A stretch of 64,000 nucleotides of DNA from an uncultured Phycisphaerales bacterium. GTDB taxonomy: Bacteria; Planctomycetota; Phycisphaerae; Tepidisphaerales; Tepidisphaeraceae. Below are positions 2,973 to 63,481 of the stretch, in pieces. Under the pieces are notes generated by a model, which worked only from the letters and a program-made list of their open reading frames with translations, did no database searches and was not told the DNA's origin. Made by a program: the position numbers and the translations under genes. Position 1 is the stretch's first letter. Each line of letters begins with the position of its first letter. The DNA is taken from contig CAWIJX010000006.1 of the NCBI GenBank assembly GCA_963836515.1, positions 324,809 to 388,808 on the forward strand. The letters are read 5' to 3'.

Positions 2973-3012
2973 GCGACGTGGCGACGTAGCGACGGGGCGA
3001 CGGGGCGACGAA
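2973..3012. repeat. tandem octamer GCGACGNN x5 in the lepB/tlpA divergent intergenic region
   Basis: gcgacgtg gcgacgta gcgacggg gcgacggg gcgacgaa. The reverse-complement 'cttcgtcg' tandem recurs at 43983-44017 and 37500-37520. Confidence 0.8.
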
Positions 3013-3133
3013 GGGAAGGGCAGGAGGGCACATCTCCGCTGGTGACAACCTCAAGCGCGATGGCTCGGCGCGTTCTCCGGTCGAAAGCCGATTCTCCATT
3101 GATCGAAGGCAACCGTTGCGTTACGCTCGCAAG

Positions 3134-3152
3134 CACATCGAAACCCCGGCCA
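3134..3152 (+). promoter_or_regulatory. perfect 8-bp stem hairpin (CCCCGGCC-atc-GGCCGGGG) in the 5' leader just upstream of the tlpA-like RBS
   Basis: Seen directly; followed by 'aagaaaggaaggatgaatcATG'. Confidence 0.5.
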
Positions 3153-3181
3153 TCGGCCGGGGAAGAAAGGAAGGATGAATC

Positions 3182-3715
3182 ATGGTCTGGCGCACACTCA
3201 CGGCTATCTGCTGCTTCTCGGTAATGGGGCTGTCCTGGTCTTGCGCTCGCGCGGCGGAAGGGCCTGCCTCGCTGGAGGGGAAGGTCGCGCCGGACTTTTC
3301 GCTGAAGACGATTGATGACAAGCCGGTGAAACTCTCCGAGATGAAGGGCAGCGTGGTGGTCATCGACTTCTGGGCGACGTGGTGCCCGCCCTGCCGCAAG
3401 TCGCTGCCGCATCTCCAGAAGGTCAGCGCGGACAAGGCGATGGCCGACCAGGGCCTGGTTGTGTGGGCGGTCAATGCGCGCGAGGCGAAGGACAAGGTCC
3501 AGCAGTTCCTGACGGACAACAAGTACACTTTCATCGTGCCGATGGATGCGGAAGGCGCCGCGATGAAGGATTATCTCGTGCGCGGAATTCCAACGACCGT
3601 GATCGTCGGACGCGACGGCACGGTCAAGAAAGTCTTCGTCGGTTTCGGAGAGGGCAGCGAGGGGCCGATGGACGAGGCCGTTGCCGCGGCGCTGAAGGAA
3701 GCCAAGGCCAAATAG
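3182..3715 (+). CDS. TlpA/ResA-like thiol:disulfide oxidoreductase (thioredoxin fold), secreted
   Basis: Signal peptide followed by a 'WATWCPPC' active site. AhpC/TSA-TlpA family layout. Confidence 0.8.
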   Translation: MVWRTLTAICCFSVMGLSWSCARAAEGPASLEGKVAPDFSLKTIDDKPVKLSEMKGSVVVIDFWATWCPPCRKSLPHLQKVSADKAMADQGLVVWAVNAREAKDKVQQFLTDNKYTFIVPMDAEGAAMKDYLVRGIPTTVIVGRDGTVKKVFVGFGEGSEGPMDEAVAAALKEAKAK

Positions 3716-5780: not shown

Positions 5781-5798
5781 ACATCTGAAGCGGAAGCG

Positions 5799-6038
5799 TC
5801 AGCGCCCGCCCTGGGTCGGGGCGGGCTCACGCTTCCGCTTCAGACACTGCGCACGGCTGTCCGTCACGATCACGCCGGCTTTCCTCATCTCCTCAATTGC
5901 CCGATCCACATCGCCGCTCTTGAGATTGACGCCGCGGCAAGCGTCGACGAGCAGGTGCGTGCGGAAGCCGAGCTGCACGGCGTCGAGCGCCGTGAATTTC
6001 ACGCTCTCCGGCAGCAGCGCGAGCCGTGGGAAAAGGCT
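5799..6038 (-). pseudogene. nicotinamidase/isochorismatase-family C-terminal fragment (PncA-like)
   Basis: 'VKFTALDAVQLGFRTHLLVDACRGVNL...AIEEMRKAGVIV' matches the PncA C-terminus. There is an in-frame stop at 6039-6041 and only 135 nt before the next gene, so the N-terminal two thirds are absent. Confidence 0.5.
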
Positions 6039-7559: not shown

Positions 7560-7590
7560 GAACCACAGATGAACACTGATGAGCACAGAT
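7560..7590 (+). repeat. 3'-of-gene motif 'element X' copy 1 (GAACCACAGATGAACACtGATGAGCAC), immediately after the stop of the 6138..7551 gene
   Basis: It is an inverted partner of copy 2 at 7628-7656; together they form a long hairpin between convergent genes. Copy 3 is at 37526-37557. Confidence 0.7.
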
Positions 7591-7627
7591 TCGGAGGGCG
7601 AGCATACGCGCCATCTCATCCTATCCT

Positions 7628-7656
7628 AGTCCATCGGTGTCCATCTGTGGTTCCAT
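7628..7656 (-). repeat. element X copy 2 (minus orientation: GAACCACAGATGGACACCGATGGAC) immediately 3' of the RNase H-like gene
   Basis: Seen directly. Confidence 0.7.
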
Positions 7657-10075: not shown

Positions 10076-10111
10076 TTCTGATTTCAGATTTCAGATTTCT
10101 GATTGCAGATT
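10076..10111. repeat. tandem heptamer (C/T)AGATTT / GATTTCA array, locus A
   Basis: 'tctgatttcagatttcagatttctgattgcagattt'. The same heptamer arrays occur at 12514-12545 and, reverse-complemented, at 37436-37486. Confidence 0.8.
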
Positions 10112-10116
10112 TGGAG

Positions 10117-10143
10117 TGCGGAGATTTATCTCCGCTTTGTTTT
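10117..10143 (+). terminator. intrinsic terminator, plus strand (gcggaga-ttta-tctccgc followed by TTTGTTTTT)
   Basis: 7-bp stem, 4-nt loop and T-rich tail, seen directly. Confidence 0.55.
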
Positions 10144-10159
10144 TCGATGCCAGCGCAAG

Positions 10160-10193
10160 CATCGAAAACAAAGCGGGGACAAGTTCCCGCACT
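10160..10193 (-). terminator. intrinsic terminator, minus strand, for the TPR gene (gcgggaacttgtccccgc followed by TTTGTTTT), part of nested hairpins at 10112-10193
   Basis: Outer stem ggagtgcgg/ccgcactcc; inner 13-bp stem ttgtttttcgatgc/gcatcgaaaacaa. Lies 10 nt past the TPR stop at 10203. Confidence 0.5.
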
Positions 10194-10202
10194 CCGAAAT
10201 CA

Positions 10203-15135: not shown

Positions 15136-15187
15136 AAGTCGCAAAAGTGTCAAAGTCGCAAAAGTGTCAAAGTCGCAAAAGTGTCAG
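15136..15187. repeat. 16-bp direct tandem repeat x3 (AAGTCGCAAAAGTGTC)
   Basis: Seen directly. Sits between the truncated flavoprotein gene and the RAYT pseudogene. Confidence 0.85.
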
Positions 15188-15695
15188 GAACCGTTTTCTC
15201 CTGAAGTAGCCATCGCCGACGCCTTGCTTGGCCGGCCCAGCGGCCGCAAGGTGATCTCCAGCCCGAGTTCCCGGCACACACGTCTCTGCCATCGCTCCTC
15301 GCCAAAGGGCCGGCCGCAGGCGATGCTCTGCCTGAGGCGATCCAACTCCGCCTTCGTCTGGGGCTCGTTGACCCATTCCAGCCAGTCCTCCCGCCGCGGC
15401 AGCGGGCCGGGGGACGGTTGCAGCAGCTTCGGCTCGCGCCCGCAGAGGCTTGCCCATGGCCAGTCTTCGGCCCGCGACACGAGATTCGCGCGCAGGGCGT
15501 TACGCTCGACGTAGCGGCACACGGTGAAGTAGTGGCCATCAGCAGGCGCATGGCGAAGCGATCCACGCCCTCGGCCAGAATGCGGATGAATGCGTCATAG
15601 TCGCCGGGGTCGTCGAAGATGGCGTCTCGTGCGTTGGCGCGGTTGAGCACATGGTAGATTAACCCGCCGACGGAGCAGCGTGCCGGGCGTCCCAT
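15184..15695 (-). pseudogene. REP-associated tyrosine transposase (RAYT; IS200/IS605-family TnpA), decayed by an internal deletion and frameshift
   Basis: N-terminal piece 'LIYHVLNRANARDAIFDDPGDYDAFIRILAEGVDRFAMRLL' (ORF 15150..15731). C-terminal piece 'DGHYFTVCRYVERNALRANLVSRAEDWPWASL...' (ORF 15184..15522). The HVHLL motif and catalytic Tyr region between them are missing. Confidence 0.6.
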
Positions 15696-15808
15696 GGCAG
15701 CACGATAACGTAATCGGCGGGTCGGAGTCAAGGATTGGTCGCGGTAATGGTTCCTGACACCTTTATGCTACTTTATGCTACCCAGGCATCATGCCTGCCG
15801 ATCCGGGC

Positions 15809-16885
15809 CTACACACAAGCCATTCCGCCAGTGAGGGCACTGGCGGCACAAACCAGCCAGTCGCGCACAGAATCGCAGCAGTCCCGCGCATTGGTAGTCG
15901 GGACAAGATCGCCATCCCGCAATTCCGCCAGGCTGGGGAGCTTGCCATAGACTCCGCCACGAACCGCCGGGCCGGCGAAGAACGCGACCCCCGCGGTGCC
16001 GTGATCGGTGCCGGCCGAGCCGTTCTCGCGCAGCCGCCGGCCAAATTCGCTGAAGATCATCACCATGACACTGCCGTCGGCTCGCGCCGATCGCAGCCGG
16101 GCCAAGAAGCCCCCGACAGCCTCTGAGAGCTCCGAGAGCAACTGCGCGTGGGCCTGCGCCTGGTGGGCGTGCGTGTCAAATCCCGACAAGGATGCGTGGA
16201 AGCAGTGCGACGAGCAGCGGGAGATGATCGCGTCGGAAAAGTTGACCAGTGCGCTGGCTAATGATGGCGCGGGGAGCTGCGCGGCTCGCGCAGCGCCGCC
16301 TTGGAACATCTGCGGACATTCCTCGCCTGCATAGACCATGGGTGGCATGCCCACGCCCGGCGCTGTTGACTGTGCTTCGCCGCGGGAGCTTGCTCGCCGG
16401 GCGTGGGCATGCTGAGCGTCCATTGTGCGTCCCACGCGCATGCCCACGCCGGCCGAACCCAGTTCCTTCGGCAGATGGAGATCTCTCGCGGCCGGCGTGG
16501 GCATGCCACCCAGCGCGGTATGCCAGATCGCGCGGTTCCCCGAGTGGCTGCGATCGGGGCCGATGTGGCCCACGCCCTGCACGATCGCGAGCTGCCCACG
16601 ACGGTAAAGACTGTGGATCGATGCCATGGCCGGATGAAGCGCCGTGCGATCGTCGAGCATCAGGGCCTGCGCGGGCGGAATCGCCAGCGTGGGACGATTG
16701 CTGAAATAGAGCTCATCGCGGACGGGAATGACGGTGTTGAGCGCGTCGTTGCCGCCGGCCAGCTCGATCAGCACAAGATGGCGGCCGGTGGATGCCCGGT
16801 CGGCACCGCGGCCTACGCGCGGCAAGAGGGCCGAGGCGGCAAGGATCGAGCTTGTGCCAAGAAAGTGACGACGTGAGAGGATCAT
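15809..16885 (-). CDS. DUF1501 domain protein (sulfatase-like, Tat signal)
   Basis: 'MILSRRHFLG' Tat motif; 'LVLIELAGGNDALNTVIPV', 'GFDTHAHQ' and 'SEFGRRLRENGSAGTDHG' DUF1501 hallmarks. Confidence 0.8.
   Translation of the reverse strand: MILSRRHFLGTSSILAASALLPRVGRGADRASTGRHLVLIELAGGNDALNTVIPVRDELYFSNRPTLAIPPAQALMLDDRTALHPAMASIHSLYRRGQLAIVQGVGHIGPDRSHSGNRAIWHTALGGMPTPAARDLHLPKELGSAGVGMRVGRTMDAQHAHARRASSRGEAQSTAPGVGMPPMVYAGEECPQMFQGGAARAAQLPAPSLASALVNFSDAIISRCSSHCFHASLSGFDTHAHQAQAHAQLLSELSEAVGGFLARLRSARADGSVMVMIFSEFGRRLRENGSAGTDHGTAGVAFFAGPAVRGGVYGKLPSLAELRDGDLVPTTNARDCCDSVRDWLVCAASALTGGMACV
16343..16507. repeat. four copies of a 16-17-nt palindromic unit GCATGCCCACGCC(C)GG in alternating orientation (REP/BIME-like) inside the DUF1501 coding sequence
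   Basis: Copies at 16343-16364 (+), 16396-16413 (-), 16434-16453 (+) and 16490-16507 (-), about 700 bp from the RAYT pseudogene. Confidence 0.6.
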
Positions 16886-19984: not shown

Positions 19985-20125
19985 CTTTGTCAGTAGTCCG
20001 TTGTCCGTTGTCAGTGGTCGGGTCCGTGGTCCCCTGGTCAGTGGACGCGCGGAGGCTCTCCCAATTGACCAATGGACCATTGACCCGTCCACGGACAACG
20101 GACCACAGACAACTGACGAGCAGAT
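19985..20125. repeat. palindromic repeat element (about 150 bp, ACTGAC/GGTCC/GGACAA-rich), copy 1
   Basis: Shares arms with copies at 33385-33550, 57296-57355 and 58905-59055. All copies are intergenic. Confidence 0.7.
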
Positions 20126-23100: not shown

Positions 23101-24845
23101 AGCGTACCGTGCTCGAGACGCGGCGCGAGCTGCTCAAGAAGCGGCTGGCCGCGGCGCCCGCCAAGGCGCCGACCACCAACCCGGCCGACGCGGAGACTGA
23201 CGCGACCGCTTCGGCGATCTCGTCGCTCAACAGCCAGATCACGCTGCTGAATGGCCGGATCGACCGGCTCAAGACACTGGGCGCGGTGGCGAGCGACAAG
23301 GCGCCCACGACCGCTCCCGCGGCCAAGCCGAATCCCGAGCAGACCGCGCTGATTGAGGCCGGCAGCGCCTTCGATATCGCGATTGAAGATCCCGATCTGA
23401 AGGAGCCAACTGTCGAGGTCCGGGTCCGCAGCATGGGCGGGCGGCTCATCGATTCCGTCACGATTTCGGCCAAGCGCGATGACGGCGGCGTCTACCGCGC
23501 CCACGTGCAGACCGACCGCGGCGAGGCCGGCCAGAAGGGCCTGCTGTCGGTCGTGCCCGGCGGCGAGATCGTGGCCGACTATCAGAACAAGAACCGCGCG
23601 CCGCAGGAGAACGTCGATCGCGTGAGTTACCTGGCTCTCGCCTCGGACGCGACGCTCGCGGCCACCAATGCCAACTTCACCGATCAGGTGAGCAAAGTGC
23701 GGCTGGGCGAGCCGGTGTACGTGCAGGTCATCAATTTCGCGGCCGACCGCTCGCCGGGAATCAATGTGGTCGCGGCCGACGTGACCTCCAGCAGCGGCGA
23801 TCGCCTTACTCTGATCCTCTCCGAAACCGAGCCGCACAGCGGCATCTTCCGCGGCAAGTTCTACACCGATGCCGGCGCGCCCAATCCCAACGATGACGTG
23901 CTCCAGGCCGCATATGGCGGGAGCGTGCAGATCGTCTATCGCGACTATCTCCGCCAGGACCGCTCGCAGTCGCTGGAGAGAAAGCTGCGGCTCGAAATCG
24001 CCGGCGGCACCGATGGAATCGTCGAGGCCTTCTCGCGCCAGTTCAAGGATGCGCAGGAAGAGATGAAGCTCTGGTATCGCACCGGCCAGTCGGCCTACCA
24101 GATCGGCCGGCGGCTCTACCTGGCCGGCGGCTACGAGCGTGCCGAGGAGTACTTCATCGAAGCCAACGACTACTTCTCGCACCTCGTTTCGCGATTCCCC
24201 GAAGAGGCCCTGGCCGCCAGCGCCAACTATTATCTGGGTAACATCCAGTCGCTCAAGGGCAATCACCGCGAGGCGCTGCTGCGGTTCCAGGAGATCGTGA
24301 CGCGCTGGCCCAAGTCGGATTTCGTGGCCAAGGCGCGATTCAAGGTCGGCCAGGCGTATGAGGCCATGGGCCAGTTCGAGCAGGCCGCCGACGCGTACGT
24401 GCTGCTGACGTATCACCATCCCGATGATGCGCACGTGCCCATGGCGATGATTCGGATGATGAACTACTACGCCCGCGGCGAGCAGTACGCCGATGCGGTG
24501 GCGATCGCGCAGAAGTTCGTGGAGAAGTTCCCGAAACAGGAGCAGGCCGGCGCGGTGGCGCTGAAGGCCGGGCAGTGGCTGGCGGTGGCCGAGAAACTCG
24601 ACGACGCCCTGGCCTGGTTCGCACAGGCCGAGAAGACCTTCGCAACCAATGACAAGGACATGCCGGCGCTGCTGTACTGGCATGCGGCGACACTGATCCA
24701 GATGCAAACGGCGCCGAAGGCGAGGCTCACGGTTCGGCCGGACAAGATTCGCGAGCTGCTCAACCGCGTAATTTACGACTATGGCAAGAGCGAGTACGTG
24801 AACCTCGCCCGCGCGGCGATGGAGCAGGTGCCGTTGAACCAATGA
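20140..24845 (+). CDS. very large secreted TPR / 'ETGxxTGxF'-repeat protein (about 1560 aa), at least five apparent frameshifts
   Basis: The coding signal hops between ORFs 19933.., 20210.., 20277.., 20600.., 22180.. and 22662..24845. Signal peptide 'MAILMGMLVPALGAQ'. Motifs 'VQLRETGPRTGIFIGSV', 'VELTETGNATGIFAGPL', 'LILSETEPHSGIFRGKF'. C-terminal TPRs. Confidence 0.55.
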
Positions 24846-24980
24846 CCAATTTCTAATGACGAATGTCTAAAGAAGGCCGAATGACGGAATGACGAATGAC
24901 GAATGACGGTGGCGTTTCGGACTTCGTCATTTGATCATTCGGAATTGATTAGACATTCGTCATTTGACATTCAGCATTCG
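24846..24980. repeat. imperfect 120-bp palindrome built from GAATGAC/GTCATTC heptamers (terminator or REP-like element)
   Basis: 'ctaatgacgaatgtctaaag..gaatgacggaatgacgaatgacgaatgacgg..tcgtcatttgatcattcggaattgattagacattcgtcatttg'. Confidence 0.7.
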
Positions 24981-58904: not shown

Positions 58905-59055
58905 CAACCCCATAGGTCCGTCGTCCGTGGTCCGTAGACGGGTCAATGGTCCCTTGGTCAGTTGCGAGAGCCCAACAATCCCAAACCTGAGTGGCACATC
59001 CACTGACCAAGGACTAACGGACCCAACTACTGACCACTGACCACTGACAATCGCC
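58905..59055. repeat. palindromic repeat element, copy 4
   Basis: Arms 'gacgggtcaatggtcccttggtcagttgc' and 'ccactgaccaaggactaacggacccaactactgacc'. Confidence 0.7.
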
Positions 59056-62281: not shown

Positions 62282-63481
62282 ATGCGGCCGTTGGGGCGGC
62301 TTCAGCCGCCGCGCCTGGCCGCCCTTCGCATGGACCCATCGCCAACCAACCTCATGCGACGCGCCCTCGACCTGGCCCGCCTTGGCCGCGGCCGGGTCGA
62401 GCCCAATCCCATGGTCGGCTGCGTTATCGAGAAAGCCGGCCGGATCATCGGCGAGGGCTATCACCGCCGTTTCGGCGGGCCCCATGCCGAAATCGAAGCT
62501 CTTGCCTCATGCACCGAAAGCCCGGCCGGCGCCACCGCCTGCGTGACCCTCGAGCCCTGCTGTCACACCAACAAGAAGACGCCGCCCTGCGTGCCCGCCA
62601 TCGTGGCCGCAAAGCTGGCCCGGGTTGTCGTCGCATGCCGCGACCCCAATCCCGCCGTTGCCGGCCAGGGCATCGAGCAGCTTCGCCAAGCCGGCATTGC
62701 GGTGGAGTCGGGCCTTCTCGAACCGCAGGCCCGGCAGCTCAACGCGCCGTACTTCGCCCGCGTGCTGCACAATCGCCCGTACGTGACCCTCAAATGGGCG
62801 CAGAGCGCCGATGGCAAACTGGCCGGGCCAGGCAATTGCCGCATCCAGATCAGCAACGAGCATTCGATGAGGCTCGTGCATGAGCTGCGATCGCGTTGCG
62901 ACGCGATCCTCGTCGGCATCGGCACCGTCCTGGCCGACGATCCACTGCTGACGGTGCGAGACGTGCAACCCTCGCGTGAACTGCTGCGGGTTGTCCTCGA
63001 TTCTGCGCTCCGGCTGGCGCTCGATTCCCAACTCGTGCGCACAGCGCGCGAGCACCCGCTCCTCGTCTACTACGCTGACCCTGACACGGCATCCGCTCGC
63101 GCCTTGCAGCAAGCCGGCGTCGAGGTGGTTGGTCTCTCGAAGGGCGAGGATGGCCGCCTCGATATCCAGACCGCGCTGCACGACCTGGCCGCGCGCGATG
63201 TCACGCACCTGCTCGTCGAAGGCGGCGCCACGATCCTGGCCAGCTTTCTGTCACAGAATCTAGCGGATCGAGTCTGGGTGTTCACGTCGCCCATGCGGAT
63301 TGGCGATGGGGTCGTCGCGCCGTTCTGTCGGTGGGGCAGACATTCTTGTCTGCCATCATCTATGGCAGACAAGAATGTCTGCCCCACCGACAGAGATCAG
63401 CTTGTGGAAATGCTCAACCCCGCCAGCCCCGTGTTCTTCCACCTCGATCCATCCGCGGACTTCCCAGATCCCGTTCCGTGA
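62282..63481 (+). CDS. ribD: bifunctional riboflavin biosynthesis deaminase/reductase RibD
   Basis: 'HAEIEAL...CVTLEPCCH' deaminase zinc motif; reductase domain 'TLKWAQSADGKLAG...ILVGIGTVLADDPLLTVR'. A 33-bp perfect inverted repeat sits in its 3' end. Confidence 0.85.
   Translation: MRPLGRLQPPRLAALRMDPSPTNLMRRALDLARLGRGRVEPNPMVGCVIEKAGRIIGEGYHRRFGGPHAEIEALASCTESPAGATACVTLEPCCHTNKKTPPCVPAIVAAKLARVVVACRDPNPAVAGQGIEQLRQAGIAVESGLLEPQARQLNAPYFARVLHNRPYVTLKWAQSADGKLAGPGNCRIQISNEHSMRLVHELRSRCDAILVGIGTVLADDPLLTVRDVQPSRELLRVVLDSALRLALDSQLVRTAREHPLLVYYADPDTASARALQQAGVEVVGLSKGEDGRLDIQTALHDLAARDVTHLLVEGGATILASFLSQNLADRVWVFTSPMRIGDGVVAPFCRWGRHSCLPSSMADKNVCPTDRDQLVEMLNPASPVFFHLDPSADFPDPVP
63324..63393. 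repeat. perfect 33-bp inverted repeat with 5-nt loop (CTGTCGGTGGGGCAGACATTCTTGTCTGCCAT-catct-ATGGCAGACAAGAATGTCTGCCCCACCGACAG) embedded in the ribD 3' coding region
   Basis: Seen directly. 71 nt, no mismatches. Confidence 0.9.

Follow-up and report, generated by a model that had tools for sequence, protein, structure and literature searches.

A translated palindrome in ribD of an uncultured Phycisphaerales bacterium is probably one copy of a REP/REPIN-type repeat

The 3' region of ribD in the stretch of DNA analyzed here (64,000 nt, referred to as the window) harbors a perfect hairpin, which is probably one copy of a nonautonomous repeat of the REP/REPIN kind, carried in the gene as a translated passenger. 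The hairpin is real and statistically extreme; its explanation is largely ordinary, since the in-frame behavior of such repeats is already documented. The two arms (63324-63356 and 63362-63394) are 33 nt each, 100% complementary, and separated by a 5-nt loop, CATCT, for a total of 71 nt. A sequence-only reading had recognized the 33/33 arms and the 71-nt length but set the end at 63393, one base short of the true end at 63394. Folding of the 111-nt region as RNA returns the full hairpin with a minimum free energy of -74.8 kcal/mol (z = -11.5), and 0 of 200 shuffled sequences fold as well. The 33-mer, for which a search for further copies had been proposed, occurs in the 64-kb window just at the two arm positions (0 expected), and it is the 20-nt core of the arms that proves to be a widespread repeat. 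Although chimeric reads can produce perfect palindromes, an assembly or sequencing artefact is extremely unlikely here: the site lies in the interior of a 464-kb contig, the reading frame and conserved C terminus are kept, and the hairpin is a true member of a repeat family found in hundreds of independent assemblies.

Each arm contains a small hairpin of its own, preceded by GGTGG. In the 71 nt, a 25-nt unit and its inverted counterpart stand on either side of a 9-nt spacer and are enclosed by 6 outer nt at each end, the whole being bounded by ...GCGCCGT on the left and GATCAGC... on the right. The GTGG tag is present on both units in the window. The parts of the element are as follows.

63324-63394, no strand: complete palindrome, a putative REPIN-type head-to-head REP doublet, as judged from the 33/33 arms, the fold, and membership in a long-arm subfamily with 9-nt spacers
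63324-63329, + strand: outer arm extension TCTGTC, which pairs with 63389-63394 and fits GT.C.GTT[TC] directly 5' of GGTGG
63330-63354, + strand: left REP unit, comprising G, the tag GTGG (63331-63334), and the small hairpin GGCAGACA-TTCT-TGTCTGCC (63335-63354), assigned from a 218-unit family consensus and compensatory stem variants
63355-63363, no strand: 9-nt spacer ATCATCTAT between the REP bodies, of a length common to the long-arm subfamily, with an outer AT/AT pair and the central CATCT as the loop
63364-63388, - strand: right REP unit, reverse-complementary to the left one, with the stem-loop at 63364-63383, CCAC at 63384-63387, and C at 63388, assigned from the same consensus
63389-63394, + strand: outer arm extension GACAGA, the complement of 63324-63329, assigned from arm complementarity and the subfamily pattern

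The host gene is open from 62282 (62282-63481), with an ATG directly after the lspA stop codon, and this reading frame encodes 399 aa; orthologues and the database protein P0001 (100% identical, 375 aa) start 24 codons later, which makes 62354 the likely start. The element occupies codons 348-371 of the 399-aa frame, in the following setting.

62354-63481, + strand: ribD, encoding deaminase and RibD_C reductase domains, with the start taken from the orthologues and P0001
63323-63394, + strand: the 24 element codons, translated as FCRWGRHSCLPSSMADKNVCPTDR, between a conserved AP (ending at 63322) and an invariant Asp (63395-63397)

The sequence-only reading had stated this translation, near the RibD C terminus, correctly. 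It had also taken RibD to end 20 to 25 aa later than its homologues and had proposed to look for a clean insertion of about 24 aa, and neither is what the orthologues reveal. At 375 aa, the protein falls within the 364 to 421 aa of the nearest 119 orthologues, and the segment between AP and Asp measures 17 residues in 68 of 85 orthologues, 19 in 12 of them, and at most 23, against 24 unrelated residues in the window. Because the orthologues have about 17 variable residues in that interval, the element appears to replace a native segment with a net gain of 7 aa; it fills exactly the AP-to-Asp interval, and the length of RibD is normal for its clade. The tail common to the RibD clade, LNPxSxVFFxxxPSADF, follows the element in frame. 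None of the 119 orthologues carries the element-encoded residues, and the six possible REP peptides are absent from all of them; with the core being a widespread repeat, the hairpin is not conserved coding sequence, and the central idea of that reading, a repeated palindromic element lying in frame in ribD, stands. The nearest known RibD is 63% identical, and no empty ribD site was found among the fetched loci, none of which comes from a close relative or bears ribD.

Most alignments to solved RibD structures stop just before the element segment. An AlphaFold2 model built from 85 sequences has a mean pLDDT of 92.7, with confidence dropping only in the residues that the element encodes, where the peptide of the first arm is modeled as a low-confidence loop and that of the second arm, ADKNVCPT, as the penultimate β-strand, paired with the last strand, DQLVEML; this strand placement is a feature of the model that the alignment may guide. 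RibD carrying the element is predicted to fold normally. None of the six frames of the REP unit contains a stop codon, and each of the three forward frames of the 71-mer is open. Because there is no stop, the frame is kept, and a normal fold is predicted, the element is most likely translated within RibD as a tolerated passenger.

We placed the element in a wider context by an exact-match scan with the 20-nt core, using one genome per species. Among the matches listed, at least 116 genome stretches contain the core, with <1 expected by chance. Core-bearing assemblies number at least 65 (41 Planctomycetota, 11 Verrucomicrobiota, 4 Acidobacteriota, 4 Chloroflexota, 2 Hydrogenedentes, and 3 others), and complete chromosomes are among the core-bearing sequences. 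Assembly CAVRAR01 harbors the repeat at 14 loci or more and several other assemblies at 3 to 6 loci each; for the source genome, the 64-kb window contains one doublet and no other copy. Across 218 units, conservation is limited to (G)GT[G/A]G and the 20-nt hairpin, an 8-bp stem with a 4-nt loop, and the flanks are random: conservation ends 5 to 6 nt 5' of the stem and directly at its 3' end. The tag is found on one side only and reads GTGG in 150 units and GTAG in 24. Selection on nothing but tag and loop gave 179 units, of which 156 show a perfect outer stem; of 33 left stems that vary, 19 have full compensation on the right side. Besides single units and tandem arrays, there are 36 head-to-head doublets, whose spacers range from 0 to 55 nt. 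At the level of sequence, a one-sided tag, a compensated short stem-loop, and inverted doublets correspond to the anatomy of REP and REPIN elements. A one-sided GTAG-like tag and a short stem-loop kept by compensatory changes characterize the REP, and inverted REPs that form one hairpin and evolve jointly, seen here in the 36 head-to-head dimers and in the covariation of 17 members described below, characterize the REPIN.

This anatomy bears on the type of element that the sequence-only reading had proposed, a MITE- or Correia/ERIC-like hairpin element. A MITE of this type would be a deletion derivative of an insertion sequence with terminal inverted repeats, mobilized by a DDE transposase. 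Correia, ERIC, and NEMIS elements are, like the window's element, short dispersed palindromic repeats that form RNA hairpins, and the family is noncoding in kind and present in many copies in some genomes. Such MITEs, however, have terminal inverted repeats and target duplications, and the window's element has neither, being built of tagged stem-loops: its conserved unit is a self-folding 25-nt stem-loop with a one-sided tag that also occurs singly and at widely varying spacing, its arms covary, no direct target-site duplication is found at the flanks (CCGT and GATC), and no transposase family recurs beside the copies. We therefore regard a MITE as very unlikely and describe the hairpin as a tagged REP doublet.

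Several copies elsewhere have arrangements of their own. Tandem REP arrays are found in L072 (2821-3040, 4 copies with a period of 66 to 67 nt) and L070 (1746-1849, 3 copies with a period of 42 nt); CRISPR was considered for these regularly spaced copies and rejected, the "spacers" being themselves repeated. On a Pedosphaera chromosome, the REP unit lies within a composite intergenic repeat of about 150 nt with conserved flanks (L002 823-974 and 4100-4218; L086 about 5275), and these copies with shared flanks, considered as ends of an insertion sequence, were set aside as short composite intergenic repeats. A 24-nt tagged REP unit is also present in three IMG/VR viral contigs (L117 4828-4851, L118 56-79, and L119 9042-9065), the last of which contains two REP units.

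The 33-bp arms of the window extend beyond the REP units. Among the 36 dimers, taken without regard to spacer length, outward complementarity of more than 3 bp is found only in the window (7 bp) and in L014 (6 bp). This would favor a local origin, in which a single REP (the ADKNVCPT arm) lay in ribD and a fold-back template switch then copied its reverse complement over native codons. Overwriting would explain the missing native codons, and single units that encode ADKNVCPT in the same frame are found in L087, L012, L054, L104, and L048. The picture changes when doublets with 9-nt spacers are considered separately. When the 30-aa segment encoded by the element served as query in an exhaustive search of proteins, 16 were found, and in P0154 and P0159 (DNA L124 and L123) the spacer has the same length as in the window and outer palindromic arms are present. 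A metagenome scan for 9-nt-spacer doublets returned 45 loci, many of which are complementary over 10 to 21 bp outward from the REP bodies, with the 4- to 5-nt tag counted in; by this measure L163 reaches 21 bp, L125, L141, and L160 each 16, L134 12, and the window 11. In JGI metagenomes, nothing matches the extended arm of 31 nt exactly. The outer arms of the subfamily follow the pattern GT.C.GTT[TC]|GGTGG, which the window's GTTCTGTC|GGTGG fits.

In 17 aligned long-arm members, 91% of cells pair and 18 pairs are changed on both sides; 0 of 500 shuffles reach the observed value, and slid controls pair at 35 to 43%. Wherever the loop or the tag has a variable base, both arms carry the same variant. 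Because the arms covary and loop and tag variants match, the doublet evolves as one hairpin, the signature of a REPIN. Perfect long arms are ordinary for the 9-nt-spacer subfamily, which accounts for the 33-bp arms of the window. Because the window's flank fits the subfamily pattern, the extra base pairs, TCTGTC and GACAGA, are most simply part of the mobile unit. The long-arm subfamily counts against the idea that these outer 6 bp are native ribD codons from a local inverted duplication. A template switch is likewise not needed, and with 9-nt-spacer dimers often bearing long patterned outer arms and no known intermediate with a single REP in ribD, we consider a local origin decidedly unlikely.

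Translation of the repeat within ribD has parallels elsewhere in the family. The copies lie in many unrelated genes, in both orientations, and at least eight loci have REP units inside genes supported by Pfam, as listed here.

L022: SNF2 helicase with the in-frame repeat VGQTFLSA...ADKNVCPT
L048: protein kinase with the in-frame repeat twice
L065: phosphoglycerate-mutase family enzyme (PhosphMutase) with the in-frame repeat
L012: sulfatase with the in-frame repeat
L028: histidine-kinase HisKA domain with the in-frame repeat
L054: AMP-binding enzyme with the in-frame repeat
L104: B12/radical-SAM protein with the in-frame repeat
L087, 5361-7004, - strand: murA (UDP-GlcNAc enolpyruvyl transferase) with in-frame RADKNVCPT

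Compared with solved MurA structures, the MurA of L087 has about 30 additional residues in the region of the repeat.

This dispersal also bears on whether the hairpin serves the operon as an RNA or DNA signal, be it a terminator, an RNase III site, an mRNA stabilizer, a ribosome pause, or a protein-binding site. The hairpin is very stable, the covariation of its stem indicates that pairing is selected somewhere in the life cycle of the family, and enterobacterial REPs affect mRNA stability and bind gyrase and IHF (PMC3733652). The element is nevertheless absent from the orthologues, its position is within the reading frame, with the stop codon 84 nt further on, and its relatives are scattered over unrelated genes. 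The terminator that had been proposed from the sequence finds no counterpart, as the bases after the hairpin, GATCAGCTTGTGG, contain no T-run; a terminator scan gave two matches, both of them sub-stems inside the arms, with the REP loop taken as the "tail". No Rfam family reaches threshold; even with a permissive E-value, the sole matches in Rfam 15 are generic models of eukaryotic miRNA precursors, at about half the threshold and on both strands. A functional signal is highly improbable on these grounds, and no specific function of the hairpin in ribD is indicated. An attachment or recombination site, also raised at first, does not accord with copies dispersed over many unrelated genes and intergenic regions.

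REP and REPIN elements are thought to spread as single-stranded DNA hairpins on which a RAYT-type Y1 (HUH) transposase acts in trans. From this knowledge of REP-RAYT systems and the anatomy of the family, we infer a similar route for the window's element. Two 25-nt GTGG-tagged units, head to head with a 9-nt spacer and short outer arms, form one long hairpin, which would have spread in single-stranded form, cut and pasted in trans by a RAYT-type Y1 (HUH) tyrosine transposase. The copy would have landed in a variable, surface-exposed segment before the last β-strand of the RibD reductase domain, and ribD now has 24 element codons in place of the roughly 17 native codons of its orthologues; there is no stop in the frame used, the downstream frame is kept, and the predicted fold is normal. 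The replacement of native codons is not explained by plain transposition.

Nine RAYT/TIRYT seeds from PMC3733652 identified no RAYT flanked by the window's REP in the window or the 116 loci; they match one gene only, a decayed TIRYT-like one at the following position of the window.

15150-15731, - strand: TIR-associated (TIRYT-type) gene for a Y1 (HUH) transposase, decayed, which matches R. baltica RB2408 at E = 5e-24

In this gene the N- and C-terminal portions do not share a frame, and the HUH segment that should link them has apparently been deleted. A frameshifted homologue is found in L124 (16-709). Both genes are TIRYT-like, score too low to reach the NCBIfam cutoff for RAYTs, and lack the window's REP at their flanks. 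Three tandem copies of the 17-mer GTCGCAAAAGTGTCAAA (15138-15188) follow directly downstream of this decayed gene. With the E. coli RAYT as query, phmmer matched none of the ORFs near dispersed copies, and all-against-all clustering of the ORFs near copies revealed no recurrent transposase family. A screen for the HUH...YxxNP motif yielded two candidates, both of which were false positives. The Opitutus terrae RAYT has 26 relatives only. In L120 (2900-3650), an Opitutus-type RAYT gene (3001-3570) is bordered on each side by a different GTAG-tagged REP, GTAGGGCTCGAGCTTGCTCGATGCC, the copies being inverted. The locus, from a metagenome-assembled genome, is a textbook REPtron; REPtrons thus exist in the superphylum, with no link to the REP family of the window.

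The closest known systems are the GTAG-tagged REPs of the PVC superphylum, which occur in Planctomycetes and Verrucomicrobia (Di Nocera, De Gregorio & Rocco 2013, BMC Genomics 14:522; PMC3733652; e.g., O. terrae GTAG-17 to -20). They share with the window's family the one-sided GTAG or GTGG tag, with most O. terrae GTAG-20 units carrying GTGG, as well as a stem-loop of 6 to 9 bp and overlapping phyla. They also share head-to-head dimers, the commonest arrangement in most REP families, some of them within longer palindromes (PMC3733652). O. terrae REPs are also reported inside genes, and intragenic in-frame REP dimers encode 20 to 30 aa in real proteins (Di Nocera et al. 2013, PMC3733652). The window's family appears to differ from these in its sequence, and its unit stays near-identical from phylum to phylum. 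The intragenic REP table of PMC3733652 lists none of the six peptides that the REP could encode, and a sequence search of the searchable literature found the window's 20-mer in no paper. Judged from that table and that search, the window's REP family is apparently undescribed.

The REPINs of Pseudomonas and Enterobacteria, reportedly described with their RAYTs by Bertels and Rainey in 2011, resemble the window's element in that two inverted REPs form one long hairpin whose arms change together. Classical REPINs are extragenic and lineage-restricted, whereas the window's family is often intragenic and spans phyla, and REPINs have a cognate RAYT, whereas none was found for this family in the window or the 116 loci. 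Rickettsia palindromic elements (RPEs), reportedly described by Ogata et al. in 2000, measure about 100 to 150 bp, are inserted in frame in protein-coding genes, some of them essential, and are tolerated by way of surface regions. The likeness to the in-frame palindromic repeat of ribD is one of behavior only: RPEs are longer, their hosts and presumably their sequences are unrelated, and they only add residues, whereas the window's element appears to replace a native segment.

REPs are normally lineage-specific, and a near-identical unit in several phyla, as the sequences suggest here, would be unusual; some of the matches outside the PVC group could be mis-binned contigs. A more far-reaching proposal, which we regard as speculative and on balance doubtful, is that the family is an undescribed REPIN lineage with a unit near-identical across Planctomycetota, Verrucomicrobiota, Acidobacteriota, Chloroflexota, and Hydrogenedentes, owing to horizontal spread or a conserved partner, and that it is unusually prone to lie in coding sequence. 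If so, it would run contrary to the view of REPINs as strictly vertical and lineage-specific, it would supply ready-made peptide modules (ADKNVCPT, VGQTFLSA, and GRQECLPH) to essential enzymes, with the element standing in for a structural β-strand in RibD, and its mobilizer might be other than a classical RAYT.

The probable identification of the element as a REP/REPIN-type repeat has more immediate consequences for annotation. The 24 Cys/Trp-rich residues near the RibD C terminus are probably repeat-derived, not a frameshift, an error, or a new motif, and REP peptides will recur in unrelated proteins of these phyla, where they may cause spurious similarity matches. Beyond Rickettsia and Opitutus, the window would add a clear case in which a selfish palindromic repeat is translated in a housekeeping enzyme and replaces residues there. 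The results point to a REP/REPIN family in little-studied phyla, whose cross-phylum uniformity, frequent occurrence within genes, and mobilizing enzyme are worth following.

Finally, the window contains further repeats. The palindrome GCGTGGGCATGCCCACGC occurs four times at 16339-16512, inside a 358-aa ORF (15809-16885, - strand) whose C-terminal part matches DUF1501 and whose N terminus looks like a twin-arginine signal; these copies may be a second in-frame palindromic repeat cluster of the source genome. Long imperfect inverted repeats at 19989-20117 (52-nt arms, 83% complementary) and 58916-59048 (47-nt arms, 74% complementary) share similar short motifs rich in GTCCGT and GGACCA and may represent another repeat family. 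More imperfect hairpins are found at 24841-24978 (63-nt arms, 76%), 10110-10198 (34 nt, 82%), 5784-5844 (27 nt, 85%), and 7560-7653 (22 nt, 91%).
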